Below are positions 19,669 through 62,527 of a DNA stretch of 64,000 bases, piece by piece (the first letter of the stretch is position 1; the number at the start of each line of letters is the position of its first letter). Under the pieces are notes generated by a model that saw nothing but the letters and a program-made list of their open reading frames with translations, made no database searches and had not been told where the DNA came from. Source of the DNA: Bacteroidota bacterium (GTDB lineage Bacteria > Bacteroidota > Bacteroidia > Bacteroidales > JACABE01); the NCBI GenBank assembly GCA_026391675.1, contig JAPLDQ010000019.1:87780-151779 (forward strand). The letters run 5' to 3'. The translations under genes and the position numbers were made by a program.

Positions 19669-19910
19669 TTATAATTGATTTAAACAAGTTTGTAAGGTCT
19701 AAAAAACTGGAAGTTATTAACAATAGCTTTTTGATAAAATTTATCAAAACAGGAATATATTCAACTGAAATCATGATAGTTATTAATTATTTCAAAGTCT
19801 AACAGAAATAAGAAAGCTATCCGGAATATTATGTTTTTTATTTAATTGATTCAGGCCGATATTTCCAAAATTTATAATTCATAACTTATAACTCATAACT
19901 AAAATCTCCT

Positions 19911-19918
19911 TACTTTTG
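19911..19918 (+). promoter_or_regulatory. Candidate -7 promoter box (TAnnTTTG) for the ComB-like gene
   Basis: 'TACTTTTG' lies 19 nt upstream of the ATG at 19938. Confidence 0.35.
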
Positions 19919-19937: not shown

Positions 19938-20654
19938 ATGAACACTATCGAAGTTTGTTTTACACCCAAATTATACAGTGAAATCGTCACAAAAGAGAAT
20001 TTTATCGTAGTAATGGCAGACATCCTACGTGCCAGCACTTCTATCTGTGCTGCCTTTGAAAATGGCGTTGAAGCCATTATTCCTGTTGCAAGTCTGGAAG
20101 AAGCCAAAGCATACAAGGATAAAGGATTTCTGGTAGCTTCAGAAAGGGAAGGAATAGTAACAGGCTTTGCAGATTTTGGCAATTCCGCCTTTAATTTTAT
20201 GACTGAAGCCGTTAAAGGGAAAACCATTGCCTATAGCACAACCAATGGCACACAAGCTATAGAAATGGCAAGAAATGCAGAGGGATTGGTAATAGGAGCT
20301 TTCTCTAACATTAGCATATTGAGTCAATGGTTAATCAAACAAAATTGCAATGTAGTCATTCTTTGTGCCGGTTGGAAAAACAAATTTAATCTCGAAGATT
20401 CAATTTTTGCAGGTGCATTAATTGAAAAATTAAAGTACTCTCCTACTTTTACAATAGCATGTGATGCTGCAGAAGCCGCGCTGGATTTATGGCAAATTGC
20501 AAAACCAAATCCATTGGCTTACATTCAAAAAGCAGCCCACCATGAACGCTTAAGAAAACTTAATCTGGATGATGTACTTGAGTACAGTTTTCAGTTTGAT
20601 ACTGCGAATGTGGTTCCGGTATTAACCGATGGTGTATTGGTTAATAGTTATTAG
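19938..20654 (+). CDS. comB: 2-phosphosulfolactate phosphatase (ComB) family protein
   Basis: The length (238 aa) and N-terminal pattern 'VVMADILRASTSICAAFENGVEAIIPV' fit the ComB family (D-x-x-R-A-[ST]-[ST]). Confidence 0.65.
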   Translation: MNTIEVCFTPKLYSEIVTKENFIVVMADILRASTSICAAFENGVEAIIPVASLEEAKAYKDKGFLVASEREGIVTGFADFGNSAFNFMTEAVKGKTIAYSTTNGTQAIEMARNAEGLVIGAFSNISILSQWLIKQNCNVVILCAGWKNKFNLEDSIFAGALIEKLKYSPTFTIACDAAEAALDLWQIAKPNPLAYIQKAAHHERLRKLNLDDVLEYSFQFDTANVVPVLTDGVLVNSY

Positions 20655-20748
20655 TTATTGGTTATTGGTTATTGGTTATTAGTAATTAGTTTGTTTATTC
20701 ATAATTCATAATTCATAATTCATAATTTATAATTTATAACTCATAACT
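20647..20748. repeat. Short-period tandem arrays between convergent genes: (GTTATTR)x6, then (YATAAYT)x7
   Basis: Heptads were read directly. GTTATTA/GTTATTG run from 20647 to 20688 and start inside the last codons of the ComB-like gene. CATAATT/TATAACT/CATAACT run from 20700 to 20748 and end 6 nt before the stop of the 1515-aa gene. Confidence 0.9.
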
Positions 20749-20754
20749 ATCAAC

Positions 20755-23700
20755 CTACTCCTCCTTTTTTTCAGGTTCTTGCGGCGGAGGAATTTCGTCG
20801 CCGGTAGCACCAATAGCTTGCATTTTCTTTAGAAAATCAGTCTTTTTACGTTCAGTAGACAAATAATATGAATAAGCGGGCATGCCATTTTCAGCCTCCA
20901 AACGACGATTCTTAGGTTTCTCCAGGGTAATAAAATCATTAAAAGATTTAATGGAAGAATAAGCCTGCATTAAATTATTACTATAGGTAAAGAAATACCA
21001 TTCAGCATCGTCTAATTCAAGATACAAGGTAAATATATCCCCGCTTCTTTTTTTTATGATTTGAAGATTCCCTTTCACATATTTATTAATCTGATCTTTT
21101 CCGACATTGCCAATACCGATAGCTCCCATTGAAACAAAGGATTTGGTAATTGAATCGTATCTGAGTTTAACATCTGTCAGCATGAAAGTTTTATCCAGGG
21201 CATCAGGAACTTTCCTGAGCGACCCGTACATATTTAACTCATTGATTACTTTTTCAGCTCCTTTTTCTCCAAGAATTTCATAATAAGCATTTTTTACTTT
21301 TCCGGTATTACTATTTTCAATACTGCTCAGGCTGTTATTGGTATAAAGGCTTTTTCCCATCATCTTCATTGCATCATACTGGAAAAAGAAATTAACAGTC
21401 ATTACCAGATCAAAAGTAGCTTCATTACTTCTCATATTATTGGTAACCCTTCCAAAACTTGCCATCTGCATTCTGCCCAGATTGGTTCCCATATTTATAT
21501 TTCCATCTCCTGTTGTAACACAATTTGTAATATCCAGTACCAGCTTATTTCCAAGTGTATCAGGATTCAGTAATTTCTCTTTGGATGCAATGATATATTC
21601 ATTTTTTGGTTTATTATAGGTTAAAAATCCGGAAGCAGATACCACAGCTGTATCGCTGTAGAATCTTTTAGGTCCGGCAAAAGAAGTATAAATCTGTGCT
21701 GTATTTGCATATAATATGGCAGCAGCTAATTTTCTGCCATCAGTAGCTTTAGGATCAGCATCTATAGGGATAAAAATCTGTTTTGGATTAATTTCAGCAC
21801 TAAATTTTAACCAGGTTTTAGCTGATTCATCACATAACTGATTGATTCTGGTACCACCGCTGAATGTTAAAAATTCTCGGTTTGCTTTAAGCTGAACGCT
21901 ACCGGCGAAATCAAAAGCAGGGCTCAAAGCAAAATCAGATGAATCTGAAATTGTACCGTTTGCATAGGTACGAAGATTCGGGTCTACGCCCATTTTATCA
22001 AAAAACAGCTTAAATTTAATATCATTTTCATCAACATAATCATAATTAGCACTTGCAAAATAACTTTGTCTGCCTCTGACAGAAACTGTAGCATTATAAA
22101 AACTATGATATTTATTTGTTCTATTGGCAACAATTGTAGCATTGGTAAAAGATGACATTTCGGCCTGCCGTAATATCACAACCTTACCATCCGCCGGAGC
22201 AATAGCAGCATCAGCAACTTTAATAAGCTTTACATCTTCGGCAGTTAATATATAATCTTTCATATTAAATAAAGCCCTGGGAGATTTAAATCGCAGAGAA
22301 TCCTGAGAAGGATGCGTTGAAACAAAATCTGAACCTGGTAATTTAGCTGAAATGAGTTCTTTCAATGATAATTTATCGATATTTTCTTCAACTGTCTTTT
22401 TTGTATTCTTCAAAGCCAGTTCATCCTTATCCATAAACCATTCCAGAAAATCCATGTAACAGATATATTTGTTTACAGGAAAGTTAACCTTTGATGCATC
22501 AGAATTTGATTTGAATTCACCTTTACGTTTCTGAAAATCAATATGAGATTTATAATTCTCAGTATTAAAAGCTAAATCGGTTAAATCGTATGTTCTTAAA
22601 CGGAAATTCGCAGTATCTGCATCAAATAAATGCTGTTTGAAACTGTATAAATTTGATTCCATTTCAGCTTTTTCAAAAACCATTTTTCCTTTACCACTTA
22701 AACCTTTTGGTGTAAGCATTACCATTCCGTTAAGCTGAGATGCCCTGTTATACATTGCAAAAGCTGTATCAATCTGTGCAACTAACATTGAATCCCTGTA
22801 GGGAAACCAGCGTTGATTTACATTGGTAACAGTTAATTGCGGGTATTCTGTCAATGCAGTTTGTTCTTTTATATCAAAGTTTTGAGTAACAGCATGCATA
22901 GAATCCGGCAGAAAAATAAAATTATTTGATAATGATGTAGATGTCAGATAATCGAGCTTACCATTACCTCTTAAGCCCATATTACTCAAATCTATCTTAT
23001 TAAAATACCTGGCTTTGCCACCATAATTAGCCAAACCTGCAGGTGGTGTATTTCTCACAAATCCTAAGGAATAATCAGGTTGAACTCTCAAAGGCTCAAA
23101 TATTTCAGGGAATATACCTGCTGAAGTTAAACTGCCGTCAAACCTCAAACTATCAGTTTTAATCCTGTCAAGATTTTTAATAATAAAAGGTTGTAAGTGA
23201 TAGAAAAATTTATTCTTTTCATACGCTCCGTTCTGAATATATTGTTTATCGTAATAAACATAAGATTCATCCTTACTTTTAAATACAGGGTATTCGGGAT
23301 ATGGCTTTAATCCTGCTTTGTTGGTAGGATAATCTACTAATATTTCGCCCCTCAGATTTTGAATTACTGTTTTTAATCTTACCAAAGGACGTTCACCCTT
23401 TTCGTCAGGAACAAAAGATTCAACTTTTATACTCATGGAGTCGATAACAGGCATATTCAGTTTAAAATCATCATATTGAAATGAAGAATTTTTGGAAAAA
23501 TAATCAAAATTTCCGGCGTGAATTAAACCTGTAAATAAAAAATCCCTGTTTTTCTTTACAATTACTTCAGCATTAGTTGGAAAAATAAAAACCTGTTGCG
23601 AATCGCTCAGTAAAATAATCGGAACACCTTTAATTTTTAAATCAAAATTCAGTAAACTCAAAGAAGCGTTAACACCATTTTCAACCGTTGAACGAAACTG

Positions 23701-25302
23701 AATTGCATCATAATCAATCTTTTTATTTAAAGCTTTGATATATTCTCTTACTTTATCTTTAACAAAAACTGTCTCATCGGAAGGATTATAAATAAGAAAG
23801 CCCAAATTAGCAAGATTAATAAGCATGGCCTTAACCTGATCAGCATCAATTTTGATATATTTTGCAAGATCGCTCACAGTAAATGTATTAATACCATAGG
23901 CATCCATATATTGCTTAACTTTATATATGGGGTTAATTTCATCTATCCCCTGCAACTTCGCAAAACGTGCTTCAGAGTAATAATTAAACGATTCAAAGGT
24001 TGCCAGACTGGTTCTTCCGGGTGAGCGGACCATGCTGAAATCAATTTTTGCTTCATCCATTTTCCAATACATTGCTTCAATATACATATCCAGTTTATGA
24101 TATGTATTAAAAAAAGGACTTTTGGATACATCATTCATACCACGGATTAAGGTTAATTCCTTGAAGTCATTCAAATATTTCATTTCCAGATTTGGCTGAT
24201 AAATTGAATCTTCTTTCCAGTAAATAATTACAGATGCATTACTGGAAGAAACTTTATCGGTACGAATCACAAATAATTTAGAGGTTACATGTACAAATTC
24301 CTTATTATCTTTTTTGAAAATAAGTTTTGCATCATAATAGCTATCACCGGTACCAATAACCTTATTACCATTTATAGCAAAACCACCTTCATAATCAACA
24401 TTTGGAAAGAGATTTTTAATGCTTACGTTTTTTTCATAAGAGTTAAACCTTGGATAAGAAGCTTTATCTTCGGTAATATCAGCCATTATTTTCTCCTGAA
24501 GTGATCCGGTTAAAAAAGATTTAAAATAAGCAGGATAGAAAAACCTGACAGAATCTATAGTATATTTTGCAAATTTTAAATCAATCGAATATTTACCGAT
24601 ATAAGCATAGACATCATTGGGAGGAAAACCGGCTCTTTCCCAGGAAATTTTGCCGCCCTCTCCTATCCATTTATTATCAATTGGATAATAAACACCTTTT
24701 GTATTAAGAACTACAGAACTATCTTTACTTGCAAGACAGCATAAATCAAGTGAAGGAAATACTATTCTTAAACTTGAATCATTCACAAAATAATAATCAT
24801 CATTACTTGAATACCAACATACATTTCTTGAATTATAAATAAAATTTGATTTCAATAAATTTTCAGTTGTTTCCAAAAAACCGGCAAAATATCTTACCTT
24901 TTTTGCATCAAGTAAACTTATAACACCTTTAAACCAAGCAGTATAACTATTTTCCTTTTGCTTGCTATTTTTAAAAATGCTGATACAGCTATAGAAATTA
25001 TAAAAATTAGGATAAGCCCTTAATTTGGCTTTTAACATTAAATTAGATGCTGTAATGATCTGTGTTTTTTGTTCATCGGAAATATCTGTAGTATTCCAAT
25101 GCGCATCAAAGTCCATAAACATACTATCTATCTTAAGCTTAGTTTCTTTCTCAAGATTTTTATCATTATAAAAGAATGACTTAACTTCTTCCAGAAAGAG
25201 TTGCTGATCTTTTGGAAAATTACGGATTTGTTGAGAATATAAGGATTGAAATGGTATTAATAAACTTACAACCAAACACAAAAAGATATGTTTTTTAAAC
25301 AT
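20755..25302 (-). CDS. Very large (1515 aa) secreted protein of unknown function
   Basis: Long uninterrupted ORF with an N-terminal signal peptide (MFKKHIFLCLVVSLLIPFQSLYSQQ). I recognise no catalytic motifs. The C-terminus is acidic and Pro-rich (PPPQEPEKKEE). Confidence 0.8.
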   Translation of the reverse strand: MFKKHIFLCLVVSLLIPFQSLYSQQIRNFPKDQQLFLEEVKSFFYNDKNLEKETKLKIDSMFMDFDAHWNTTDISDEQKTQIITASNLMLKAKLRAYPNFYNFYSCISIFKNSKQKENSYTAWFKGVISLLDAKKVRYFAGFLETTENLLKSNFIYNSRNVCWYSSNDDYYFVNDSSLRIVFPSLDLCCLASKDSSVVLNTKGVYYPIDNKWIGEGGKISWERAGFPPNDVYAYIGKYSIDLKFAKYTIDSVRFFYPAYFKSFLTGSLQEKIMADITEDKASYPRFNSYEKNVSIKNLFPNVDYEGGFAINGNKVIGTGDSYYDAKLIFKKDNKEFVHVTSKLFVIRTDKVSSSNASVIIYWKEDSIYQPNLEMKYLNDFKELTLIRGMNDVSKSPFFNTYHKLDMYIEAMYWKMDEAKIDFSMVRSPGRTSLATFESFNYYSEARFAKLQGIDEINPIYKVKQYMDAYGINTFTVSDLAKYIKIDADQVKAMLINLANLGFLIYNPSDETVFVKDKVREYIKALNKKIDYDAIQFRSTVENGVNASLSLLNFDLKIKGVPIILLSDSQQVFIFPTNAEVIVKKNRDFLFTGLIHAGNFDYFSKNSSFQYDDFKLNMPVIDSMSIKVESFVPDEKGERPLVRLKTVIQNLRGEILVDYPTNKAGLKPYPEYPVFKSKDESYVYYDKQYIQNGAYEKNKFFYHLQPFIIKNLDRIKTDSLRFDGSLTSAGIFPEIFEPLRVQPDYSLGFVRNTPPAGLANYGGKARYFNKIDLSNMGLRGNGKLDYLTSTSLSNNFIFLPDSMHAVTQNFDIKEQTALTEYPQLTVTNVNQRWFPYRDSMLVAQIDTAFAMYNRASQLNGMVMLTPKGLSGKGKMVFEKAEMESNLYSFKQHLFDADTANFRLRTYDLTDLAFNTENYKSHIDFQKRKGEFKSNSDASKVNFPVNKYICYMDFLEWFMDKDELALKNTKKTVEENIDKLSLKELISAKLPGSDFVSTHPSQDSLRFKSPRALFNMKDYILTAEDVKLIKVADAAIAPADGKVVILRQAEMSSFTNATIVANRTNKYHSFYNATVSVRGRQSYFASANYDYVDENDIKFKLFFDKMGVDPNLRTYANGTISDSSDFALSPAFDFAGSVQLKANREFLTFSGGTRINQLCDESAKTWLKFSAEINPKQIFIPIDADPKATDGRKLAAAILYANTAQIYTSFAGPKRFYSDTAVVSASGFLTYNKPKNEYIIASKEKLLNPDTLGNKLVLDITNCVTTGDGNINMGTNLGRMQMASFGRVTNNMRSNEATFDLVMTVNFFFQYDAMKMMGKSLYTNNSLSSIENSNTGKVKNAYYEILGEKGAEKVINELNMYGSLRKVPDALDKTFMLTDVKLRYDSITKSFVSMGAIGIGNVGKDQINKYVKGNLQIIKKRSGDIFTLYLELDDAEWYFFTYSNNLMQAYSSIKSFNDFITLEKPKNRRLEAENGMPAYSYYLSTERKKTDFLKKMQAIGATGDEIPPPQEPEKKEE

Positions 25303-26916: not shown

Positions 26917-26929
26917 TTTTAAAAATTTA

Positions 26930-27047
26930 GTTATTTGGTTATTAGGTTATTGAGTTATTGGCTTTTGGCTTTTAGCATTTAGCTTTTAGCTTTTGGCTAT
27001 TAGCCTATATCTTATAACTTATAACTCATAACTCATAATTTATAATT
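26930..27047. repeat. Tripartite short-period array: (GTTATTN) units, (GCTTTTR)x5-6, then (TYATAAY)x5
   Basis: Read directly. GGTTATT-type units run 26930-26960. GGCTTTT/AGCTTTT/AGCATTT heptads run 26961-26997. TTATAAC/TCATAAC/TCATAAT units run 27012-27046. The array lies between the tpiA start and the permease stop. Confidence 0.9.
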
Positions 27048-27062
27048 CACAAAATCAGCGCC

Positions 27063-33343: not shown

Positions 33344-33378
33344 AACTCATAACTCATAATTTAAAACTTATAACTCAA
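33344..33378. repeat. Short-period array (AACTCAT-type heptads x5) abutting a stop codon
   Basis: AACTCAT AACTCAT AATTTAA AACTTAT AACTCAA was read directly. It ends 5 nt before the stop (33384) of the 182-aa minus-strand gene. Confidence 0.8.
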
Positions 33379-35273: not shown

Positions 35274-35354
35274 GTTCTAAATTTTAATTATTATATGATG
35301 TCGCAAAATTAAAAATAAATTCAGAATTTCAAACTTTAATTATAAATTATAATA

Positions 35355-37712
35355 TTATTCTGCGATTTGTTGTTGCGGCGACACAGGTTCTTCGCTTATT
35401 GTACTGTCATTTTTATGAAAATAAGTATGACAACTGTAATTCTTATTTATTTTAATTTTAGGTTTTGGATATTTCTTTTTGTACTCAAGATATCTTGGGT
35501 CTTTCAACAATTTCTCCATAAAAAGACCATAAATAGGTAAAGCTGTTTTACAACCTTCACCTAATTCAGATGTACGAAAATGGACGCTTCTGTTATCGGC
35601 CCCTACCCAGGAAGCTGAAATCAAATCAGGTGTAACACCAATAAACCAGCCATCAGAATGATTGGAAGATGTTCCAGTTTTACCTCCAAAATCTGTTTTA
35701 TTGTCTGCAAATAAATCATATTCAAACAGTGCCTGTGTTGTACCTCCGGGTTCATGCAAACCACCCTGTAACATCTGATTCATTAAAAAAGCTGTTTCTT
35801 CACTTATCACCCTTTCCTTTTTAGGATTCATTTCATACAACACCCTGCCTTTTTTATCCGTAATTTTTGTAACGAGTATAGGTTCTATTTTATAGCCTTC
35901 ATTATTTAAAGGGCAATAAGCTGTAATCAATTCAAATAAGGATACATCGCTGGAACCCAGACAAACAGAAGGTACGTCGGCTAATTTGGTTTTTATACCC
36001 AACTTATAAGCATATTCAATTACTTTTTGCCAGCCTAATTTCTGTGTTAACTGGACAGCAATAGAATTTATTGATTTTGCAAAAGCATATTTCAATGTAA
36101 CACTGGAACCTGTAAAAACCCAGTCAGCATTGCTGGGTGACCATGATTTATTTTTACCATTTTCCACATAGTTATAGGTTACAGGGACATCGTTCAGTTG
36201 ATCACAGGGAGCATAACCGTTATCCATGGCAGCGGTATATACAAATGCTTTAAAAGTTGAACCCGGCTGACGTTTTGATTTCATTACATGGTCAAACTTA
36301 AAGCTGTTAAAATTAATGCCTCCGATATAGGTTTTTACATAACCATTATTCGGGTCCATTGTAATGAACCCGGCATGCAATAATGAATTATAATATTTTA
36401 TTGAATCAATAGTACTTAATAGCGTATCTCTGTCACCTTTATAGGTATAAACGCGCATTTTCCTCAGTTGATTCAGATATAAATCTATGCTATCCTTTTG
36501 AGTAGGAAATTTCTTAACCAGATCTTTATAATGCTGGGTTTTAACGACTAAATTTGAAACGAAATCATCTATTTCCTCACCATTTTCCTTACGCCAGGGG
36601 TTCTCTCCTTCCCAATGCTGGAAAAATCTTTTTTGCAATCGTTTCATATGCTCATCCATTGCTTCTTCAGCATATTGCTGCATACCCATATCAAGGCTGG
36701 TATATATTTTCAGTCCATCTTCGTATAAATTCAGATCTTTTTCCTTTAACCAGGCTTTTAAATAATTACTTACAGCTTCCCTGAAATAAGGTGCTTTTCC
36801 ATCATAATTATTTTCAACACTGTAATTGAGTAGGATTGGAATTTGTAATATAGAATCATGCTCATTCTGAGTAATCATCTTATATTTAAGCAATTGACCA
36901 AGTACAGTATTTCTTCTTTCCAACGCCCTGTCAGCATGAGAAATTGGACTATAGTAAGTTGGTGCCTTTAACATACCAACAAGCAAAGCTGATTGTTCAA
37001 TGTTTAACTGTGAAGGTTTAATATTAAAGAAAGTTCTGGCAGCTGTTTTAATACCGTATGCATTACTGCCAAAATCAACGGTATTAAAATACATAGTTAA
37101 TATGTCATCTTTACTGTAAAAAAGTTCAATTTTAAGTGAAGTAATCCATTCTTTGGCTTTATAAATAGCAGTTTTAACTCCCGGAATATGGCCAAACAAT
37201 CCTCTTGAATAATTATTTCTGGTCTTAAAAAGGTTTTTTACCAATTGTTGTGTAATAGTACTTCCTCCCCTTTTCTCCCCTTTGATCATGTACCAGAAAA
37301 TAGAAAAAGTAGCACGTAAATCAATGCCATGATGCTCATAGAACCTCACGTCTTCTGTATTGATAAGTGTTTTAATCATCAGTGGTGATACTTCGCTTAA
37401 TTTTATTGGTGTTCTGTTCTCATCAAAATATTTACCTATCATTTTACCATCTGCAGCATAAAGTTCAGAGGCTGTTTTCTGTTTTGGGTCATTAATCTGG
37501 CTCAGTTTGGGAGACTTGCCGAATAACCAAAGAAAATTCATATCCACTAAACCCAGAAACAATATAAACAGAATAAAAACATGAACTAACCTTATTAAAA
37601 TCTTTTTATATCTGGGCCATTTGGATGGTATATAAAATACCCATTTAATGATATTCCGGGCTTTTTGAAAAATTAATTTTAAGAAAGTAAGCAATTTGCT
37701 GATATACTTCAT
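35355..37712 (-). CDS. mrcA: Class A penicillin-binding protein (PBP1A; glycosyltransferase 51 plus transpeptidase)
   Basis: GT51 motifs 'EDVRFYEHHGID' and 'GGSTITQQLVKN'. Transpeptidase motifs 'GSTFK' (SxxK) and 'GKTGTS' (KTG). Confidence 0.9.
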   Translation of the reverse strand: MKYISKLLTFLKLIFQKARNIIKWVFYIPSKWPRYKKILIRLVHVFILFILFLGLVDMNFLWLFGKSPKLSQINDPKQKTASELYAADGKMIGKYFDENRTPIKLSEVSPLMIKTLINTEDVRFYEHHGIDLRATFSIFWYMIKGEKRGGSTITQQLVKNLFKTRNNYSRGLFGHIPGVKTAIYKAKEWITSLKIELFYSKDDILTMYFNTVDFGSNAYGIKTAARTFFNIKPSQLNIEQSALLVGMLKAPTYYSPISHADRALERRNTVLGQLLKYKMITQNEHDSILQIPILLNYSVENNYDGKAPYFREAVSNYLKAWLKEKDLNLYEDGLKIYTSLDMGMQQYAEEAMDEHMKRLQKRFFQHWEGENPWRKENGEEIDDFVSNLVVKTQHYKDLVKKFPTQKDSIDLYLNQLRKMRVYTYKGDRDTLLSTIDSIKYYNSLLHAGFITMDPNNGYVKTYIGGINFNSFKFDHVMKSKRQPGSTFKAFVYTAAMDNGYAPCDQLNDVPVTYNYVENGKNKSWSPSNADWVFTGSSVTLKYAFAKSINSIAVQLTQKLGWQKVIEYAYKLGIKTKLADVPSVCLGSSDVSLFELITAYCPLNNEGYKIEPILVTKITDKKGRVLYEMNPKKERVISEETAFLMNQMLQGGLHEPGGTTQALFEYDLFADNKTDFGGKTGTSSNHSDGWFIGVTPDLISASWVGADNRSVHFRTSELGEGCKTALPIYGLFMEKLLKDPRYLEYKKKYPKPKIKINKNYSCHTYFHKNDSTISEEPVSPQQQIAE

Positions 37713-38978: not shown

Positions 38979-39096
38979 GTTATTGGTTATTGGTTATTGG
39001 TTATTGGTTATTGAATATTGGTTATTGGTTACTGGTTATTGGTTATTGGTTACTGATTATTCAGCATTCATAATTCATAATTCATAATTCATAATT
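38979..39096. repeat. Short-period arrays: (GTTATTG/GTTACTG)x~12, then (CATAATT)x4
   Basis: Read directly. The GTTATTG series begins 20 nt from the M48 start codon. The CATAATT series (39069-39096) ends 1 nt before the stop of the DUF218-like gene. Confidence 0.9.
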
Positions 39097-41951: not shown

Positions 41952-41960
41952 GTTTCGTAT

Positions 41961-42118
41961 TTGGTTAGTGGGTTAATAAGTTATTAGGTTATTAGGTTAT
42001 TAAGTTATTAGGTTAATAAGTTATTAGGTTAATAAGTTATTGAGTTATTGGTTATTGGTTATTGGTTATTAAGTAATTACAATATCCATTCATAACTCAT
42101 AATTCATAATTTATAACT
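41961..42118. repeat. Short-period arrays: (GTTATTAG/GTTAATAA 8-nt and GTTATTG 7-nt units), then (CATAAYT)x4
   Basis: Read directly. The CATAACT/CATAATT/TATAACT series (42091-42118) ends 3 nt before the fabG stop (42122). Confidence 0.9.
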
Positions 42119-42121
42119 CAA

Positions 42122-42868: not shown

Positions 42869-43048
42869 TTTTTGTCTTTATTAAATTTCGTGCAAAGATA
42901 GTGTTTTTTGGTGTAAAAACAATCAAAAATATCATGAAGCCTGAAGTCGGAAATCCGAAGACCGAAGTCTGGCTGCAGGGGTTAGAAGCTTGCCGGGAAT
43001 AATATTAAGATGAGGATTACATAATGTTTTTTAGAAGTGATTTTAATT

Positions 43049-43078
43049 CCTTACTTTTCCCTCTTGATGGAAAAGTAA
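43049..43078. repeat. Perfect 11-bp hairpin inside a repeat-rich intergenic zone
   Basis: CTTACTTTTCC-CTCTTGAT-GGAAAAGTAAG. It is part of a composite repeat that also occurs around 48.73-48.96 kb. Confidence 0.6.
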
Positions 43079-43360
43079 GCAAAAGATCAAGTCTGCAAAT
43101 CCTTTACTTCAAATCTACGCTTTTAAAATCCCTGCGCAATACAAGCCGTAGCGAAAATAATATTATTTCATTTATGTTTCCTTTAAACTTCGCTATCTTC
43201 TGTATTGCTTGCGCAAAGCCACCGCTATTTAAAAAGCTTGATTTGTAACGTAAAGTATTTGAGGACAGTCCAGCTTCGTAGAGATAACAGTACTTAAAGT
43301 ACTTAAACAACTATCTGTTTTAAAGATTAACAATCGACGGTATTATAAGCCATTTTAAGT

Positions 43361-43400
43361 AAATCACCAAATCGCGAAATCACTAAATCACTAATTTGAC
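43361..43400. repeat. Octamer tandem array (AAATCACN x5; reverse complement of the NGTGATTT units at 62472-62527)
   Basis: AAATCACC AAATCGCG AAATCACT AAATCACT AATTTGAC was read directly. Confidence 0.8.
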
Positions 43401-43470
43401 ATTTTTTCTGAATATTTCTATCCTCAACGTTTATGCTTGATTCTTTTGATTATCGTATCTTCTTTTGCAT

Positions 43471-43496
43471 AAAAAAAGCCACCCAAAAGGATAGCT
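43471..43496 (-). terminator. Intrinsic terminator downstream of the small lipoprotein ORF
   Basis: The minus-strand RNA reads AGCUAUCC-UUUU-GGGUGGCU followed by UUUUUUU. The stem is 8 bp including two G-U pairs. Confidence 0.5.
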
Positions 43497-43520
43497 TTTA
43501 AAAGGGATAATATATGGTTT

Positions 43521-43712
43521 TTATTTATTGATAGTAGTTTCGTAATTATATGTTTTGGTATCAACGCTATCATTTCTAATTGATTTAGAATTATCAGGCA
43601 TTTCAACAGAATTTATAAAACGGAAACCTGGTAAACTGACATTTAAATCTGAATTACATTTATTTAAACCTATTGCTCCTGAAAAAATTAAAATAAGTAC
43701 TGACGTTTTCAT
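43521..43712 (-). CDS. Small putative lipoprotein (63 aa)
   Basis: Signal peptide plus Cys (MKTSVLILIFSGAIGLNKC). A terminator-like hairpin sits about 25 nt downstream. It overlaps alternative-frame ORFs that look spurious. Confidence 0.45.
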   Translation of the reverse strand: MKTSVLILIFSGAIGLNKCNSDLNVSLPGFRFINSVEMPDNSKSIRNDSVDTKTYNYETTINK

Positions 43713-43953
43713 GTGTTATTATTTTTATATAATTTATCATTATGACGAGAAGATAAATGAAAAAGTTACAACTAAAACCTGATTTCATTTGTTAAAATTG
43801 TACTTTTGCCGTGCAGCAAAGGCTGCATAAAAAATTAAATATAATAATTACAACTTATAGATATGAAATGCCCAAGGTAAATATTGCAAATAAAGCAGAA
43901 TTGATTATTTGGGCATTCATTTGTACATATAAATTAAATCAAAAAATAAACAA

Positions 43954-45027
43954 ATGAAATTTAGTCAGGGAGATAAAGTAAAATTTTTAAACACAAGTGG
44001 TGGAGGAATAGTTACCAAGATTATAAGTACTACAATGGTAAGTGTTGCTATTGAAGAAGGGTTTGAAGTACCTACATTAGTTACTGAACTGATAAAGATT
44101 GATGAAAGTTCTGCGGGGGCCCGTTTATTTAATAAGGATTTTAACGTAAACCCTAAATTTACACAAGAAGAAAACGAAATTGAAGAAGATGATGGAAAAT
44201 CAGCCTTACAAAAATCATACGGGAACAGCAATCAGGCTGCAGGCGTTTATCTTGCATTTGTGCCTCACGACCAACGCTGGTTACTTACCGGTAATCTTGA
44301 TGTTTGTTTAATCAATCATACGGAATATTACACCTTGTTCAACTTTACACTTTTCAAAGATGATGGAAAATTCTATGGTATGGATTATGATGTGATGGAA
44401 GCTGAAAGTAAAAAAATTATCACCACTATCGAAAGAGAAGACCTGGAAGACTGGAGTTCGGGCAATGTACAAATATTGTTTCATGCCGAAACAAAAGACC
44501 GTTTACTTACGCCTTTAAATGCTGATTTTAAAATAAAACCCAGCCGTTTTTACAAAGAAGAAAACTATATTGTTTCTTCCTTTTTACGTGAAAAAGCTTT
44601 GTTGTTAACCCTTGGGAATTTAATTGAAATTCCAGTCAATCAATCTCGTTTTTATAAAGCTGCTGATAAATCAACACCTGAAATACAGCTAAAAAAATCA
44701 AGCCAGTTAAAATCAGAAACTATTCTAGACAGCCATCAGATTAATCCAACTACTGCTGAAATTGACCTCCATATCGGAGAACTCGTAGAAGATTATTACC
44801 TGCTGGATAATGCAGAAATGCTGAAGATACAGCTTGATTATTTCGTTAAATGTCTTGAATCGGCATTTGTAAATAAAACACAGAAATTGATTTTTATCCA
44901 TGGTGTTGGCAATGGTGTGCTTAAAAACGAAATGATTAAAATCCTTAAAACTTATGATAATCTGCATTACTTTGATGCTTCTATGGCAAAGTACGGTGCC
45001 GGTGCGACGGAGGTTTATATAAGGTAA
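43954..45027 (+). CDS. Smr (MutS2 C-terminal-like) domain protein with a DUF2027-like N-terminal region
   Basis: The C-terminal 'EIDLHIGEL...LIFIHGVGNGVLKNEMIKIL' matches the Smr domain pattern (DLHG.../hGkG.G.L). Confidence 0.75.
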   Translation: MKFSQGDKVKFLNTSGGGIVTKIISTTMVSVAIEEGFEVPTLVTELIKIDESSAGARLFNKDFNVNPKFTQEENEIEEDDGKSALQKSYGNSNQAAGVYLAFVPHDQRWLLTGNLDVCLINHTEYYTLFNFTLFKDDGKFYGMDYDVMEAESKKIITTIEREDLEDWSSGNVQILFHAETKDRLLTPLNADFKIKPSRFYKEENYIVSSFLREKALLLTLGNLIEIPVNQSRFYKAADKSTPEIQLKKSSQLKSETILDSHQINPTTAEIDLHIGELVEDYYLLDNAEMLKIQLDYFVKCLESAFVNKTQKLIFIHGVGNGVLKNEMIKILKTYDNLHYFDASMAKYGAGATEVYIR

Positions 45028-45069
45028 GTTATGAGTTATGAGTTATGAGTTATGAGTTATGAGTTATGA
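45028..45069. repeat. Perfect (GTTATGA)x6 tandem array starting immediately after the Smr stop codon
   Basis: Six identical heptads were read directly from 45028. The TAA stop occupies 45025-45027. Confidence 0.95.
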
Positions 45070-45086
45070 GTGGCACTGGATGTTTT

Positions 45087-45221
45087 GTCATTCCGAGTTT
45101 TAACATTTAGAAAAATGCTTGAAGGTACGATGACAAAAATATAAAATCATTGCTTTTTCAATCTCTGCGGTCCTTTGCGCCTTCTTTGCGGCTCTCAGCG
45201 GTAAAAAAGTTTAACCGCAGA
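45087..45221 (+). repeat. 135-bp repeat, copy 1 (upstream of rnpB)
   Basis: Identical by eye to 45741-45875. It contains two hairpins: TTTTGTCAT...ATGACAAAA and TCTGCGG...CCGCAGA. Confidence 0.9.
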
Positions 45222-45300: not shown

Positions 45301-45670
45301 CGAAACAACAGTTCGTTCTATCGCTGTCCCGCCATAGGCGGGAGAGAGGAAAGTCCGGGCAACATAGAGCAAGCATACTTCCTAACGGGAAGGTCCCTTC
45401 TTTGAGGGGAACAGCAAGTGCCACAGAAAATAACCGTCCCGCCTTGTGCGGGATAAGGGTGAAAATGTGAGGTAAGAGCTCACGTTCTGCTTTGGCAACA
45501 AGGCAGAAGGGTAAACCTTATGCGTTGAAAGACCAAATATACCGGATGTTAAGGGCTGCTCGTCCGATGCCGGGGGGTAGGTCGTTAGAGGCTACCGGCG
45601 ACGATAGTCCCAGATAAATGATAGAAGTCCCTTTGGGAAACAGAACCCGGCTTACAGAACTGTTGTTTTA
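45301..45670 (+). ncRNA. rnpB: RNase P RNA, bacterial type A
   Basis: Universally conserved P4 strands are present: 'GAGGAAAGTCCGGGC' (5') and 'ACAGAACCCGGCTTA' (3'). The terminal P1 pairing is AAACAACAGTTC (45303-45314) with GAACTGTTGTTT (45657-45668). Internal 'GGTAAGAGCTCAC' and 'GGGTAAACC' elements are present. ORFs called here (45150-45470 +, 45158-45424 -) are artefacts. Confidence 0.92.
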
Positions 45671-45740
45671 TTTTTATTGAGCGATAAGTGACAAGTTATA
45701 AATTATTAGTTTTAAGTTATATTTGATGCTGAGTGTTTTT

Positions 45741-45875
45741 GTCATTCCGAGTTTTAACATTTAGAAAAATGCTTGAAGGTACGATGACAAAAATATAAAA
45801 TCATTGCTTTTTCAATCTCTGCGGTCCTTTGCGCCTTCTTTGCGGCTCTCAGCGGTAAAAAAGTTTAACCGCAGA
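45741..45875 (+). repeat. 135-bp repeat, copy 2 (downstream of rnpB)
   Basis: Identical by eye to 45087-45221, in the same orientation, offset by 654 nt. Confidence 0.9.
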
Positions 45876-56527: not shown

Positions 56528-56568
56528 AATATTTTTTACGTATTTATTAATATACTCCCAAATAATAC

Positions 56569-56760
56569 CTAATCATCTCTTTCAGGTCTTTCATCAACAG
56601 GTCTTCCATGAATTGGCCAATCATTTTGGCTTTTCTTTATTTCATTATCACGTCGAGCTTGGTCTTCCCTTTGCCTTCTTTCTTGTTCCTGTCGTTGTCT
56701 TTCTTGTTCAGCTCTTCTTCTTTGTTCTTCTTCAATTCTTTTTTGATCTTCATTACTCAT
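56569..56760 (-). CDS. 63-aa highly charged Glu/Arg/Gln-rich (ER/K single-helix-like) peptide
   Basis: 'RIEEEQRRRAEQERQRQEQERRQREDQARRD'. It lies 12 nt downstream of the 3-TM gene on the same strand. The low-complexity composition means a chance ORF cannot be excluded. Confidence 0.45.
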   Translation of the reverse strand: MSNEDQKRIEEEQRRRAEQERQRQEQERRQREDQARRDNEIKKSQNDWPIHGRPVDERPERDD

Positions 56761-56772
56761 AACTTAAAATAT

Positions 56773-57240
56773 TTAAAGTGAAATAATCATAAAAACAACT
56801 AATATAATAATTGCAAAAATTAATAACAATAAACTTAATCCATTTAAAATATGAGTAAGTTTATTATAAATACATTTTTTACATTCGATTTCGATTTGAT
56901 CTTCTTTTAATTCTTTACCTTTTTCTTTTTTAATAATATTTTTTATTAATTGTACCTCAAATTTATTCGCATAATATGATGTAACCTGTGAAAGTAAATT
57001 TGACACTATTGATAAAGTAAATAATATCCATGAAATTTTTAACATTAAAAAATTCACATTAGGTTTACTTAACAAAATATCTTTTACAAAGCCCATTGAT
57101 AGGGCTAAACCACCACTAGATATCGAAATAATTAATATATCAAATCGATTAAGTGAATATTTAAGATTATCTTTTGTTGCATCTAAATGGGCTTCTAAAT
57201 TAACAATATATTGACTATTTTTATTTGATATTTCTTTCAT
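56773..57240 (-). CDS. Small 3-TM membrane protein (SLATT/DUF4231-like topology; possible membrane effector)
   Basis: N-terminal soluble helix, TM1 'FDILIISISSGGLALSMGFV', TM2 'ISWILFTLSIVSNLLSQVTSY', a charged helix, and a C-terminal TM 'GLSLLLLIFAIIILVVFMIISL'. The similarity to SLATT is topological only. Confidence 0.6.
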   Translation of the reverse strand: MKEISNKNSQYIVNLEAHLDATKDNLKYSLNRFDILIISISSGGLALSMGFVKDILLSKPNVNFLMLKISWILFTLSIVSNLLSQVTSYYANKFEVQLIKNIIKKEKGKELKEDQIEIECKKCIYNKLTHILNGLSLLLLIFAIIILVVFMIISL

Positions 57241-57409: not shown

Positions 57410-57886
57410 ATGCATTTTCATACTATTTTTTTATACTTTTGTCTAGTGAAAAGGATAACATCTTATATCAGTTGCATTGTCATCATTATTTTATTCCTGG
57501 CTTCTTCCACAGGAATCAGCTTTGTTATTCACCACTGCTCCAATGATCATTCCGAAGAAATACGTTTTTTTGCCATTGATTACCAGTGCGCTCACGAAAA
57601 AATTACCGATGACTGTGCAAAAGATAACTATGGCCAGCATCATTGTGATAAACACAGCAACCATCACTGCTGTAAAAACACCAGAGGCTATTTTAGAATT
57701 GCTGATGAATATACTGTTTCTAAAAGTGACATAAAAATCAATATTCCGGTTTTTGTTAATACTGCTGTAGTTGTTTCTCCTGCTTCAATTCATTCTGATT
57801 TCTTTACCTATAATAATATTTGCAGTCAGCACCCCTCCTCTTCAGGAGTGAGTATTTATTGCATGAATTCCCAGTTTCTTATCTGA
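57410..57886 (+). CDS. His/Cys-rich membrane-anchored protein upstream of the metal efflux genes (HYC_CC_PP-like putative metal-binding protein)
   Basis: N-terminal TM, then 'VIHHCSNDHSEE', 'CAHEKITDDCAKDNYGQHHCDKHSNHHCCKN'. Its position directly upstream of czcA is typical for such proteins in Bacteroidota. Confidence 0.6.
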   Translation: MHFHTIFLYFCLVKRITSYISCIVIIILFLASSTGISFVIHHCSNDHSEEIRFFAIDYQCAHEKITDDCAKDNYGQHHCDKHSNHHCCKNTRGYFRIADEYTVSKSDIKINIPVFVNTAVVVSPASIHSDFFTYNNICSQHPSSSGVSIYCMNSQFLI

Positions 57887-57905
57887 TTTTATACTGTTTT
57901 TGCCA

Positions 57906-58061
57906 CTAAGGCACTAAGACACAAAGGAAATTAAATAAAAATCTTTTTGTCTTAAATGTATTATTTAGCTAATGCTTTTATTAATAATAAGACTTAGTGC
58001 CTTTGTGGCAAGACCAAATTTGTGTCTTTTTGGCAAAAAACTTAGTGTCTTAGTGCCTTAG
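57906..58061. repeat. Palindromic REP-like element in the czc leader
   Basis: CTAAGGCACTAAGACAC (57906-57922) and GTGTCTTAGTGCCTTAG (58045-58061) are perfect 17-bp inverted repeats. The interior carries related 'CTTAGTGCCTTTGTGGCA' and 'TTTGTGTCTTTTTGGCA' units. Confidence 0.85.
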
Positions 58062-58079
58062 TTGCTAATAATAAAAATC

Positions 58080-61000: not shown

Positions 61001-62468
61001 AACCCGTCTGCGTCCTGTAATCATGACGGCTGCCGTTGCTTCGCTCGGATTTTTACCCATGGCATTATCAACTTCAGCCGGTGCCGAAGTACAGAAACCT
61101 TTGGCAACTGTTGTAATTGGTGGGCTTATCACAGCAACATTACTTACATTGCTTATACTTCCTGTTTTCTATATTATTTTCTCCAACTATAAATTCAGCA
61201 TTTCATTTAAAAGCAAAACATCCAAAGTAATTAGCATAGTTATATTAGTATTTATGACAACTTGCTGTTTTATGAATGTAAAGGCACAGGAAATAAAGTA
61301 TATCAATTTGCATGATGCGATACAAATGGCGCTGGACAGGAATTTAAATCTCCGTTCTTCCGCTTATGCCGTTGACGAACAAAAAGCGATGAAAGCTGCT
61401 AGCTGGGATATCAGCAAAACCAATATTGAACTGCAATACGGGCAATTTAATTCTTATGAAAAAGACAATGGGTTAACAGTATCCCAGTCCTTTGCATTTC
61501 CAACGGTATATATGATGCAAAGCAAACTGGCCAATGCCAGGGTAAAAAGCAGTGAATGGCAGTTGAAAAGTGCACAACTTGAAATTACCACTCAGCTTAA
61601 GCAACTTTACTGGCAATTGGCTTATCTGTTCTCAAAACAAAAATTACTGATCTATCAGGACAGTCTTTTTTCAAGTTTCCAACGGGCAGCTGAATTAAGG
61701 GCTAATTCGGGTGAAACCATTAAACTTGAAATGATTACGGCACGTTCGCAAAGTATGGAAGTTAAGAACCAGCGTTATCAGGTAAATGCTGATATAGGCA
61801 TTTATTTACGTAAACTGAGGACATTACTGAATACTGATATTTTAGTTTATCCGGCTGATATCATACTTAAACGGATTAATTACACAGTAGTTCCCTTAAC
61901 TTCTGAAATAGCCAATAATCCATCTCTGGCTTATATGCAGCAACAGATAGAGGTTTCGCAAAAAGAAAAACAAGTCGAAGTAAACCGCAGCTTACCCGAT
62001 CTAAGTATTGGCTATTTCAGCCAAACCATAAGGGGTACGCAGGAGGTAAATGGCCTTCCCCGTAGCTTCGGTGCCGGTGACCGTTTTACCGGCGTACAAT
62101 TGGGTATCTCCATTCCGCTTTGGTTTATGCCTTATAAAGCAAAAATAAAGTCGGCTCAGATTCAGGAGAATATGGCCAGGACAGATGCTGAAAATTACAA
62201 GAATACACTATCAAATAATTATCTTTCCTTATTGGATGAATATGCAAAATATCTCGGGAGTATTAATTATTACGAACAGCAGGCAGTTCCTGAAGCTGAG
62301 TTAATCATTGAACAAGCCAGCCAGAGTTATAAAGCCGGTGCAATGGATTACCTGGAATATATACTGAGTCTGAACCGTGCGCTGATTATTAAACAAAATC
62401 AACTGGATGCCATTAACAACTATAATCAAACCGTTATCAACATTGAGTTTGTTTGCGGGAAGTTGTAA
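58080..62468 (+). CDS. czcA: CusA/CzcA-family heavy-metal efflux RND pump fused in frame to a TolC/CzcC-like outer-membrane factor
   Basis: 'MIEHIIKFSIKNKF' is a typical CzcA start (the ATG at 58080 is preferred to the TTG at 58062). The RND region has 12 TM segments and runs to about aa 1040. 'KSKTSKVISIVILVFMTTCCFMNVKAQE' is signal-peptide-like, beginning near 61210. 'LHDAIQMALDRNLNLRSS...' opens a TolC-type region with two-repeat helical content running to the stop at 62468. Confidence 0.85.
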   Translation: MIEHIIKFSIKNKFVIGLFIVALIGWGSYSLIRLPIDAIPDITNNQVQVIALAPSLAVQEVESFITAPIEVSVANIPNIVELRSISRLGLSVVTIVFKDNVDLYWARQQLNERLKEAEEAIPPGLAKIELAPVSSGLGEIFQYRLAVAKGYEDKYNPMELRTIQDWIVRREMLGTPGIADINSYGGFVKQYEIAVNPERLRGMNLSLTDIFTALEKNNENTGSAYIDKKPNAYFIRGIGLVKTLADIEKIVVKNNTSGIPILIRDIAKVEYGSATRYGAFVVDTSEAVGGVVMMLKGANAHEVIEDVQERIKAIQKSLPKAVRIEPYLNRSDLVGRAIGTVSKNLIEGALIVIFILVLLLGNMRAGLIVASVIPLSMLFAISLMNLFGVSGNLMSLGAIDFGLIVDGAVIIVESVVHRISKSKTHHLGIERLSQQQMDENVFESAKRMMSSATFGQIIILIVYLPIIALVGIEGKMFRPMAQVVAFALLGAAILSLTYVPMASALFLSKKTVSKANLSDKLMELITKAFNPAIAYALKHKMQVSLAAIVLFILSLLLFTQLGGEFIPQLEEGDLAAGVMTLQGGSLSNTVDQVKKANKILLDNFPEVKHAVCKIGAGEIPTDPTPMETGDYIITLKDKSEWTSAKSREELVAKMEDKLVTLAGVKFEFQQPIQMRFNELMTGSKQDVAIKIFGDNLGTLADKAAEVEKIIQKVEGVEDINVEKLTGLAQVQINFNRDRLAQYGLSVDDGSKILRSAFAGSQAGVVYDEEKRFALVVRLDKDYRQSIKDVKSLTLALPNGGQIPFEQVADISIQSGPAQVSREDTKRRITIGFNVRMRDVASVIEDVKTKIDQQIILPSGYYVSYGGQFKNLEAARNRLAIAVPVALLLIFVLLYFTFHSVKQSLLIYTAVPMSAIGGIIALWLRGMNFSISAGVGFIALFGVAVLNGIVLIAEFNRLEKEGITDINERVLKGLKTRLRPVIMTAAVASLGFLPMALSTSAGAEVQKPLATVVIGGLITATLLTLLILPVFYIIFSNYKFSISFKSKTSKVISIVILVFMTTCCFMNVKAQEIKYINLHDAIQMALDRNLNLRSSAYAVDEQKAMKAASWDISKTNIELQYGQFNSYEKDNGLTVSQSFAFPTVYMMQSKLANARVKSSEWQLKSAQLEITTQLKQLYWQLAYLFSKQKLLIYQDSLFSSFQRAAELRANSGETIKLEMITARSQSMEVKNQRYQVNADIGIYLRKLRTLLNTDILVYPADIILKRINYTVVPLTSEIANNPSLAYMQQQIEVSQKEKQVEVNRSLPDLSIGYFSQTIRGTQEVNGLPRSFGAGDRFTGVQLGISIPLWFMPYKAKIKSAQIQENMARTDAENYKNTLSNNYLSLLDEYAKYLGSINYYEQQAVPEAELIIEQASQSYKAGAMDYLEYILSLNRALIIKQNQLDAINNYNQTVINIEFVCGKL

Positions 62469-62471
62469 TGT

Positions 62472-62527
62472 GCTGATACGGTAATGCGGTGATATGCTAA
62501 TTTGGTGATTTTGTGATTTTGTGATTT
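62472..62527. repeat. Degenerate octamer tandem array (GSTRATNN x7, ending in GTGATTTT GTGATTTT GTGATTT)
   Basis: GCTGATAC GGTAATGC GGTGATAT GCTAATTT GGTGATTT TGTGATTT TGTGATTT was read directly. It begins 3 nt after the czcA-fusion stop. Confidence 0.8.

Follow-up and report, generated by a model that had tools for sequence, protein, structure and literature searches.

Why do arrays of seven-nucleotide repeats stand at one gene end after another in a bacterial genome, and what keeps them in register with the genes? The question is raised by a stretch of 64,000 nucleotides (contig JAPLDQ010000019.1 of assembly GCA_026391675.1; "the window" below means this whole stretch) from the metagenome-assembled genome of an uncultured member of the Bacteroidota. 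An earlier reading, made from the letters alone, had listed heptad arrays at eight intergenic sites, and Tandem Repeats Finder (TRF) recovered a period-7 tandem array at each of the eight, and eleven such arrays of 3.9-11.9 copies in the window as a whole. With high confidence we assign these arrays to the heptanucleotide simple sequence repeats (SSRs) of the short tandemly repeated repetitive (STRR)/long SSR (LSSR) class, in which they make up an AT-rich Bacteroidota family added to a known kind. Their placement follows a rule of polarity relative to the neighboring open reading frames (ORFs), and the same rule was found in other genomes and for other heptamers.

Heptad arrays at the gene boundaries of the window

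Two unit types occur on the plus strand, a GTTATTG type and a CATAAYT type, the latter being the reverse complement of ARTTATG. A degenerate two-unit family pattern, RGTTATKRGTTATK, matched the window 31 times with at most one mismatch, as compared with 0.98 ± 0.96 matches in dinucleotide shuffles. Runs of at least two family units number 14 and all fall in non-coding DNA, which amounts to 6,794 nt or 10.8% of the window; eight of the 14 begin between -9 and +23 nt from the 3′ end of a gene read in the same sense. The arrays cover 13 nt per kb of the window. That (A/G)GTTATG-type arrays stand just past six stop codons, as the sequence-only reading had stated, was confirmed: in gene sense they start at -1 to +15 nt. 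In front of the TIM, M48 peptidase and 693-aa genes stand partner arrays of CAATAAC units, which stop 10-20 nt short of the start codons. The strict coupling to stop codons that had been proposed, however, does not hold, as arrays are also found behind the RNase P RNA gene, before start codons and, at one site, upstream of a promoter. Since one array follows an RNA gene rather than a protein gene, the coupling is to gene ends and not to stop codons as such; taking the start codons and the promoter-upstream site into account, it is to ORF or gene boundaries generally. As judged by Pfam, the genes that adjoin the arrays are ordinary housekeeping genes.

At four sites two arrays face each other in opposite orientation. 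Between fabG and the 693-aa gene, about four ARTTATG units (42090-42120, minus strand) begin 3 nt past the fabG stop (42122), and about 14 RGTTATTR units of mixed 7/8-nt period (41958-42079, plus strand; the 8-nt period is found in part of 41972-42079), G-free in gene sense, stop short of the 693-aa gene's TTG start by about 10 nt. Between the DUF218 and M48 peptidase genes, 4.4 copies of AATTATG with 100% matches (39066-39096, minus strand) start at +1/2 relative to the DUF218 stop (39098), and 11.9 GTTATTG units (38979-39061, plus strand), which read (CAAUAAC)n in gene sense and so are G-free, end 20 nt before the M48 peptidase start (38958). The spacer between the ABC permease and TIM genes has about six ARTTATR units (27006-27049, minus strand) 15 nt past the permease stop (27063) and a block of 7/8-nt RGTTATT(R) units (26925-26959, plus strand), G-free and of CAATAAC type in gene sense, that stops about 13 nt short of the start codon of TIM (26916); 6.3 units of a third heptamer, GCTTTTR (26961-27004), occupy the loop position between both blocks. 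The fourth pair is convergent. About seven ARTTATG-type units (20697-20748, minus strand; TRF 20697-20746) lie 6 nt past the stop of the 1515-aa gene (20755-25302, minus strand) and are the partner of 8.1 GTTATTG-type units on the plus strand (20635-20691). This last site (20647-20748) had been described as intergenic; the array is there, but its GTTATTG part overlaps the 3′ end of gene 19938-20654, a 2-phosphosulfolactate phosphatase gene, and contains its stop codon. The first, variant units encode the final VNSY and the TAG stop, in a variable tail past the conserved domain.

The remaining arrays are single. About five ARTTATR units (33344-33378, minus strand; TRF 33344-33377) lie some 10 nt past the stop of the 182-aa gene. 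Behind the Smr gene there is a perfect array of AGTTATG (45027-45071, plus strand; 6.4 copies), so that the six perfect copies noted before are correct, but it overlaps the last base of the stop codon (-1) instead of starting at the next base. A degenerate ARTTATR array (45684-45722, plus strand; TRF 45684-45721, 70% matches) had also been recognized; the gene that precedes it, by 14 nt, is the one for RNase P RNA (45305-45670) and not a protein gene. The array at 19871-19903 (about four ARTTATR units on the minus strand, reading as CATAACT type on the plus strand; TRF 19874-19900) is real as well, yet it does not adjoin a stop codon: the spacer is divergent, and the array directly precedes the -7 box TACTTTTG (19911-19918) of gene 19938-20654. 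Two smaller sites belong to the same family, one with the two units AGTTATG AGTAATG (56751-56764, minus strand) 8 nt past the stop of gene 56773-57240, and one at 35338-35358.

The same polarity in other genomes

We then asked how arrays of the same unit are placed elsewhere. An exact scan for (AGTTATG)×4, with one genome per species, found at least 119 loci; the counts that follow are among the matches listed. Most of them belong to Bacteroidota (Flavobacterium, Chryseobacterium, Aequorivita, Chitinophagales, Saprospiraceae and others) and filamentous Cyanobacteria (Nostoc, Calothrix, Rivularia). The whole comparison set comprised 240 further loci from Bacteroidota and Cyanobacteria, with crude ORF calls of our own; for the (AGTTATG)×4 loci, ORFs of at least 100 aa were called and each array was oriented as AGTTATG. 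The rule of position and orientation extends beyond the window. The stop of a same-sense ORF lay within 25 nt of the 5′ end of the array in 44 cases, as against six in the mirror arrangement, and the start of an antisense ORF did so in 20; only nine arrays had an ORF within 25 nt on their 3′ side. Altogether, the 5′ side was closer to an ORF in 74 arrays and the 3′ side in 13 (p = 1.6e-11). A reverse-complementary partner within 300 nt (threshold, the equivalent of at least 14 perfect bases) was found downstream of 41 of 101 arrays and upstream of none of the 101, and a G-free stretch of at least 30 nt downstream of 60 of 102 and upstream of five. The spacers were co-directional in 54 cases, convergent in 24 and divergent in one, and the outer ends of array pairs lay at a median of about 5 nt from the stop and about 20 nt from the start. 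Cyanobacteria showed the polarity too (24 versus 3 and 18 versus 0). A replicate with (GTTATTG)×4 in metagenome contigs gave 44 versus 16 for the closer side, 10 versus 0 for partners and 28 versus 5 for G-free stretches.

The rule is not tied to one word. In all the array-bearing loci fetched, 1.78 Mb together, TRF found 662 arrays of period 7, as compared with 42 of period 6 and 57 of period 8. Among 258 heptamer arrays of arbitrary sequence that lay more than 400 nt from the seeds, 245 were outside ORFs and 13 inside, and for arbitrary heptamers with a strong GC skew the 5′ end of the G-strand was the one nearer to an ORF in 92 cases versus 38 (p = 2e-6). The rule is compositional and independent of the sequence of the unit: reading outward from an ORF, one meets a block without C and then, next to the following ORF, a block without G. 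As reverse complementation leaves this order unchanged, each array seems to be coupled to the ORF 5′ to it, whichever that is. The published positional rule is sharpened in this form, with the C-free strand leading away from the ORF and the inverted partner downstream.

Some loci were more elaborate than a simple pair. One from Nostoc (L001) holds nested inverted arrays of different heptamers, and three others (L082, L028 and L192) contain long near-perfect palindromes with heptad arrays as the lower stem and unique GC-rich sequence as the upper stem.

Expansion of the arrays relative to close relatives

Relatives of the source organism, in which the 693-aa protein is 69-78% identical, keep the gene order Smr / fabG / 693 aa / DUF218 / M48 / PBP. 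The fabG-693 and DUF218-M48 spacers, 170 and 139 nt long with expanded arrays in the window, measure 51-75 nt in three of the relatives (L120, L121 and L125) and 87-170 nt in a fourth (L123). In the first three, 2-5 heptad-like units follow the stop and TAAC-type units precede the start. Counted over orthologous spacers, relatives have 2-4 units against 4-14 in the window; L125, for instance, carries two units at the site of the array at 42090-42120. The convergent spacer after gene 19938-20654 is 100 nt long in the window; in L246, a relative with 90% identity, it measures 30 nt and holds about 3+2 units. More distant relatives have textbook bidirectional intrinsic terminators in the orthologous spacer (L247, 3720-3843; L248, 8741-8887), where the window and L246, its closest relative, have heptads. 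The permease-TIM spacer has 146 nt in the window and 17 nt, without arrays, in L248 and L249, and the perfect array at the 3′ end of the Smr gene is likewise absent from the relatives. At the position of the array at 19871-19903, similar heptads are present in L246 and L248.

L120 and L121, which are 90.8% identical, differ in the fabG-693 spacer by exactly one 7-nt unit. L121 and L122, at 99.98% identity, show homopolymer differences only and no heptad polymorphism. Because relatives have shorter arrays or none, and because L120 and L121 differ by a single unit, the arrays of the window appear from sequence comparison to be recent, lineage-specific expansions by whole units from short seeds, which is the signature of slippage. 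The window thereby contributes a clear series, from spacers of 17-30 nt in relatives to arrays of 100-170 nt. A short-read contig of the source organism from Logan (L124; 2,941 nt) ends inside arrays on both sides of the 693-aa and DUF218 genes, so that the arrays act as breakpoints for short-read assembly; in practice they can also mislead the prediction of terminators and ORF ends.

Downstream of the Smr gene the neighborhood has changed. The gene order shared with L120, L121 and L123 breaks exactly at the Smr stop codon (45027), after which the relatives have a convergent radical-SAM or other gene and the window has the perfect array and then rnpB. In L120 and L121 the spacer between the Smr gene and a conserved 82-aa ORF with a signal-peptide-like sequence is about 99% identical (L120:8475-8738 versus L121:8469-8732), in contrast to 90.8% otherwise, which suggests that it may be a constrained non-coding element. 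Its equivalent in the window (42869-43953) had no match in Rfam.

RNA folding and transcription across the arrays

It had been proposed that the two arrays of a pair, imperfect reverse complements with about five of seven positions pairing and additional G-U options, form a long, periodically mismatched hairpin. The 5/7 complementarity is correct, but the additional G-U pairs exist in the antisense transcript only, the same positions being G·A and A·C mismatches in gene sense. In gene-sense RNA the hairpin is thermodynamically marginal. The minimum free energies (MFE) of spacers of 145-176 nt ranged from -8.1 kcal/mol (z -0.8) for DUF218-M48 to -19.4 kcal/mol (z -2.4) for fabG-693. The antisense RNA folds better, at -40.8 kcal/mol and z of about -5 to -8, owing to the G-U pairs alone. 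The orthologous spacers of relatives are unstructured, with MFE of 0 to -6 kcal/mol (0.0 for 82 nt in L121). A conserved sense-strand hairpin was considered and rejected, as z ranged from -0.8 to -2.4 in the window and, for DUF218-M48, was about 0 in the relatives. The G-free strand of every unit tested gave an RNA with an MFE of 0.0, whereas (AGUUAUG)8 folds on itself at -16.1 kcal/mol.

A role in termination had also been suggested. None of the classical intrinsic terminators of the window, with a GC-rich stem and a U-tract, coincides with an array; they stand at other gene ends. The one terminator-like case among the arrays, and a possible exception, is that at 33344-33378, which makes up the 5′ arm of a predicted 17-bp AU/GU hairpin, the 3′ arm of which runs into a T-run. 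Upstream of fabG, the permease gene, the 163-aa gene, gene 19938-20654 and rnpB there is a Bacteroidetes -7 box, TAnnTTTG; none was found upstream of the 693-aa, M48, TIM and 295-aa genes. Promoters in the loops between paired arrays were rejected as well, as no TTTG...TAnnTTTG occurs there, although the motif is recognizable at other genes. The absence of a -7 box before the downstream genes indicates that three of the four paired sites are inter-cistronic spacers inside operons, and efficient termination at such sites would silence housekeeping genes. The arrays of the window are probably not efficient terminators, and the evidence goes against the suggested role. The statement that they are neither GC-rich terminators, CRISPRs nor coding repeats, on the other hand, agrees with the terminator, Rfam/CRISPR and ORF checks: RNase P RNA was the sole known RNA family found in the window, and the contiguous 7-mers, with housekeeping neighbors by Pfam, gave no CRISPR match above threshold.

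Could an inverted pair nevertheless fold into an RNA stem-loop with a function, behind genes or in the gap from one cistron to the next? Such a structure could serve as a terminator or attenuator without a U-tract, as a barrier to 3′ exonucleases, as a site for RNase III or as a bridge from stop to start in translational coupling. The partners lie downstream only (41 versus 0), often with perfect complementarity and with unique inner stems, the outer ends of the pairs abut stop and start, and divergent spacers are nearly free of arrays (1 of 79), all as expected for a stem-loop. Also in keeping with it are the terminators of L247 and L248 at a convergent spacer where the window has arrays, the hairpin and T-run at 33344-33378, the lack of coincidence between array sites and classical terminators in the window, and the hairpins of cyanobacterial STRRs, for which hypotheses of stability and coupling have been put forward (PMC2670836). 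The window itself, however, offers arms that are not complementary in gene sense and pair better in antisense through G-U only, the orthologous spacers of relatives are unstructured, and three of the four pairs are inside operons, upstream of TIM, M48 and PBP genes without a promoter motif of their own. Partners are not enriched where terminators are needed, being about as frequent in convergent (11/24, 46%) as in co-directional spacers (23/54, 43%); the closest relative, L246, has neither a terminator nor a long array at the convergent site; and single arrays with no partner are common (Smr; L015; L086). On balance, we regard a functional stem-loop as possible but doubtful.

Relation to known heptamer repeats

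Arrays in the window and in the comparison set consist of tandem 7-nt units and are dispersed over non-coding DNA, wholly so in the window and for the most part in the comparison set, and between related genomes they differ in length by whole units, as LSSRs and STRRs do. Heptamer repeats are the commonest long SSRs of bacteria; in cyanobacteria they have been known since 1990, when Mazel and colleagues reportedly described the STRR sequences. The units of STRR1-3, from heterocystous cyanobacteria, are CCCCAGT, TTGGTCA and CAACAGT. With units ARTTATG and GTTATTG the arrays of the window are not STRRs in the strict sense. Heptamers were the most abundant long SSRs in prokaryotes according to Mrazek et al. 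(2007), as quoted in two later papers (PMC4679880, PMC4692102). A cyanobacterial STRR between hupS and hupL, with 7-nt repeats that form a hairpin, has been suggested to act in transcript stability or translational coupling (PMC2670836). Our arrays share with STRRs the tandem 7-nt unit, the dispersal of many copies over intergenic DNA and the inverted arrangement between co-transcribed genes, and AGTTATG itself is arrayed in Nostoc, Calothrix and Rivularia among the matches listed. They are unlike them in their Bacteroidota host, in arms that are only 5/7 complementary in the window and in a sense RNA that is essentially unstructured.

The closest precedent for the polarity is that of the GGGAATC repeats of Xanthomonas and the GGGGAYT repeats of Nostoc PCC 7120, which are nearer to the 5′ ORF in either orientation (Rehm et al., 2015; PMC4692102). 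They lie on the coding strand 0-50 nt from the stop or overlapping it, and on the non-coding strand if upstream of the ORF; they form inverted pairs in convergent spacers and are few in divergent ones, with a conserved site and a variable length, and they adjoin housekeeping genes with no function assigned (PMC4692102). The arrays of the window and of the comparison set follow the same polarity rule. Unlike these G-rich repeats, which are capable of forming quadruplexes, the units of the window are AT-rich with single Gs only; as they have no G-tracts, explanations based on quadruplexes do not transfer.

On the start side, the arrays resemble the direct repeats with unit TAACTGA found in Beggiatoaceae, Cyanobacteria and a few Bacteroidetes, which stand in forward orientation just upstream of start codons that have no Shine-Dalgarno (SD) sequence (MacGregor, 2015; PMC4679880). 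The same work mentions "larger assemblages of heptamer repeats" in Gramella, Aequorivita and Elizabethkingia (PMC4679880). Common to both are the spread over Cyanobacteria and Bacteroidetes, the TAAC core, the position a few nucleotides before starts, stops in three frames, an unstructured RNA and the lack of an SD sequence. They differ in that the units of the window, when rotated, read TAACTCA, TAATTCA or TAACCAA, one or two bases off, and in the post-stop arrays of opposite orientation, of which MacGregor saw a single case, in Flexibacter (PMC4679880). In Nostoc 7120, heptamers close to start codons are described in a preprint (10.1101/2022.06.06.494920).

A more distant likeness is to repetitive extragenic palindromic (REP) sequences and their assemblies, bacterial interspersed mosaic elements (BIMEs) and REP doublets forming hairpins (REPINs), which are also intergenic, at gene 3′ ends, in co-directional or convergent spacers and in inverted pairs of fixed arrangement. 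REP sequences, however, are imperfect palindromes of 20-40 nt with a conserved tag, mobilised by REP-associated tyrosine transposases (RAYTs), and the arrays are variable tandem heptads with no conserved unit. No REP- or REPIN-like unit beyond the heptads was found in the window, and the loops differ between its sites. The CAA-rich omega leader of tobacco mosaic virus acts as a translational enhancer in E. coli. Before a start, the G-free, A/C-rich and structure-free leader of the arrays would resemble such CA- or A-rich unstructured enhancers only in a possible way of working, the support of SD-independent initiation, with no homology. The polarity as such is already described for other heptamers (PMC4692102, PMC4679880, PMC2670836); new here are the AT-rich Bacteroidota family, the evolutionary series in close relatives, the cross-phylum count of an exception-free order for complementary pairs and, in the source genome, the unstructured sense RNA and the location of array sites inside operons.

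A proposed model: slippage with an orientation filter on the mRNA

We see about an even chance that the arrays are heptamer SSRs grown by slippage and subject to an orientation filter that acts on the mRNA. We infer that replication slippage is the engine of growth and that selection at the level of translation is the cause of the polarity. Short AT-rich seeds in short transcribed spacers would gain and lose whole units by slippage. The block that abuts the upstream ORF is C-free (ARTTATG or GTTATTG, read away from the ORF), and the block abutting the next ORF is G-free (CAATAAC or CATAAYT). A G-free tract can contain no AUG, GUG or UUG, its units carry UAA in three frames, and it is A-rich with a predicted folding energy of zero. 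Right before a start codon this orientation would be the only one tolerated, and possibly it is favored. Right behind a stop, G-free RNA would be disfavored, which would leave the C-free orientation, and slippage would then inflate whichever orientation is tolerated. Inverted pairs would arise because the orientation rule applies on both sides of the spacer. An SD-like motif precedes a single gene out of the 43 in the window, and the leaders are A-rich with about 7% G, so that (CAAUAAC)n resembles an exaggerated form of the ordinary leaders of this SD-independent organism. The arrays of the window probably have no length-dependent function.

Two other causes of the polarity were set aside. Avoidance of Rho might explain trailers free of C, but Cyanobacteria, which are not known to have Rho, show the same polarity, and it was rejected as a general cause. 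Seeding by local base composition was rejected because trailers and leaders are too weakly skewed, with fractions of.19 G and.18 C after stops and.19 C and.16 G before starts.

Several points weigh against slippage with a translational filter. The filter fits the start side well and accounts for post-stop C-free arrays at convergent ends only indirectly; all 24 convergent contexts among the matches listed have the same arrangement, with no start nearby. Among the same matches 41% of the arrays have near-perfect complementary partners, and some pairs (those of L082, L028 and L192) have GC-rich unique inner stems; perfect palindromes suggest that either selection for a hairpin or a mechanism of template switching or palindrome copying is needed. 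The background composition behind stops is barely skewed. The array at 19871-19903, being upstream of a promoter, may not be transcribed, and the comparison loci rest on crude ORF calls. Xanthomonas uses SD sequences. Its GGGAATC repeats have the same polarity nonetheless (PMC4692102).

Protein binding, mobility and phase variation as less likely explanations

The arrays could also be repeated sites for a protein, for example ribosomal protein S1 or one with a cold-shock domain, that binds single-stranded nucleic acid with a footprint of about 7 nt and covers the RNA of trailer or leader. Cold-shock proteins bind heptanucleotides, period 7 dominates over 6 and 8, and a GTTA/TAAC core is common to AGTTATG, GTTATTG, GGAGTTA and TAACTGA units. 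S1, Csp and CsrA have been proposed as candidate binders of the TAACTGA repeats (PMC4679880). The units, however, are highly diverse across loci and genomes (AGTGCTG, GTGGTAA, ATTGGGC, GGGAATC and others), in one array the period shifts to 8 nt (41972-42079), relatives do not keep the copy number, and no candidate protein was identified. We consider binding sites of this kind decidedly unlikely as an explanation.

That array modules are mobile or inserted into a target, in the manner of REP/REPIN sequences or MITEs (miniature inverted-repeat transposable elements), and home just past stops, seems very improbable. Arrays do occur where relatives have none, as in the permease-TIM spacer (17 versus 146 nt) and at the Smr 3′ end, where the array is at a break of synteny beside a 140-nt perfect direct repeat, and the junctions of the pairs at two sites have GTAATTA...ATTCATAA in common. 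But relatives of 70-90% identity carry proto-arrays of 2-4 units at the same spacers, which makes the targeted insertion considered in the sequence-only reading less likely. The window sites share no conserved termini, target-site duplications or unique core, the unit sequences vary by site and by genome, and relatives differ by insertions or deletions of single units.

It is scarcely credible that the arrays are contingency loci in which the number of heptads toggles neighboring genes, for although SSRs are the classical substrate of phase variation and copy number changes between relatives, the arrays lie between the stop and start codons of housekeeping genes (TIM, fabG, PBP1, ABC permease, RNase P RNA) and not in promoter spacing or coding 5′ ends, the 99.98%-identical L121 and L122 lack heptad polymorphism, and Rehm et al. 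were equally negative for the GGGAATC repeats (PMC4692102).

A wider reading is that the order from C-free to G-free array, exception-free for complementary pairs across Bacteroidota, Cyanobacteria and other phyla and for many heptamers, constitutes an unrecognised general punctuation of ORF boundaries in polycistronic mRNAs. We think this unlikely. If true, it might take one of three forms: G-free tracts could be SD-independent landing pads for ribosomes, with C-free tracts as inert or self-folding trailers; the pair could be a hairpin terminator or insulator without a U-tract, its polarity due to the weaker RNA:DNA hybrid of the G-free arm; or a directional, ORF-anchored mutational process could build heptamer palindromes. 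Should the polarity reflect selection at the level of translation, it would bear on how cistron boundaries are marked in bacteria that do not depend on SD sequences.

Other repeats near the arrays

On either side of the RNase P RNA gene stands one copy of a direct repeat, about 140 nt long and 100% identical between the copies (45081-45221 and 45736-45875). Each copy is preceded by a heptad array, the perfect one of six AGTTATG units in one case and the degenerate one in the other, and TTTTGTCAT...ATGACAAAA and CTCTGCGGT...ACCGCAGAG are inverted repeats inside it. This would be accounted for by a small repeated element or else by a recent duplication with fast turnover of the arrays afterward.

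Octamers are arrayed in similar places. From the stop of gene 57410-57886 to the start of the 1468-aa gene, the spacer is taken up by inverted arrays of an 8-mer, CACTAAGG / CTTAGTGC (57904-57927 and 58041-58062), and by more inverted copies; their architecture is that of the heptad pairs, and their unit is a different one with both G and C. C-poor 8-mers, GTGATTTT or GTGATTTA, form a related case with another unit at 62465-62527 (plus strand), directly past the stop of the 1468-aa gene, at 43360-43394 (minus strand) and at 27044-27058 (minus strand), and two of these positions are right behind stops. As a second enriched word of the window GTGATTTT was rejected, 12 occurrences against 8.4 expected not being significant. 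Finally, a small ORF on the minus strand (56528-56772) appears to begin at the ATG of the last heptad, AGTAATG, of the two-unit site at 56751-56764, and contains coding repeats of 18/21 nt rich in K and E (TRF 56675-56752).

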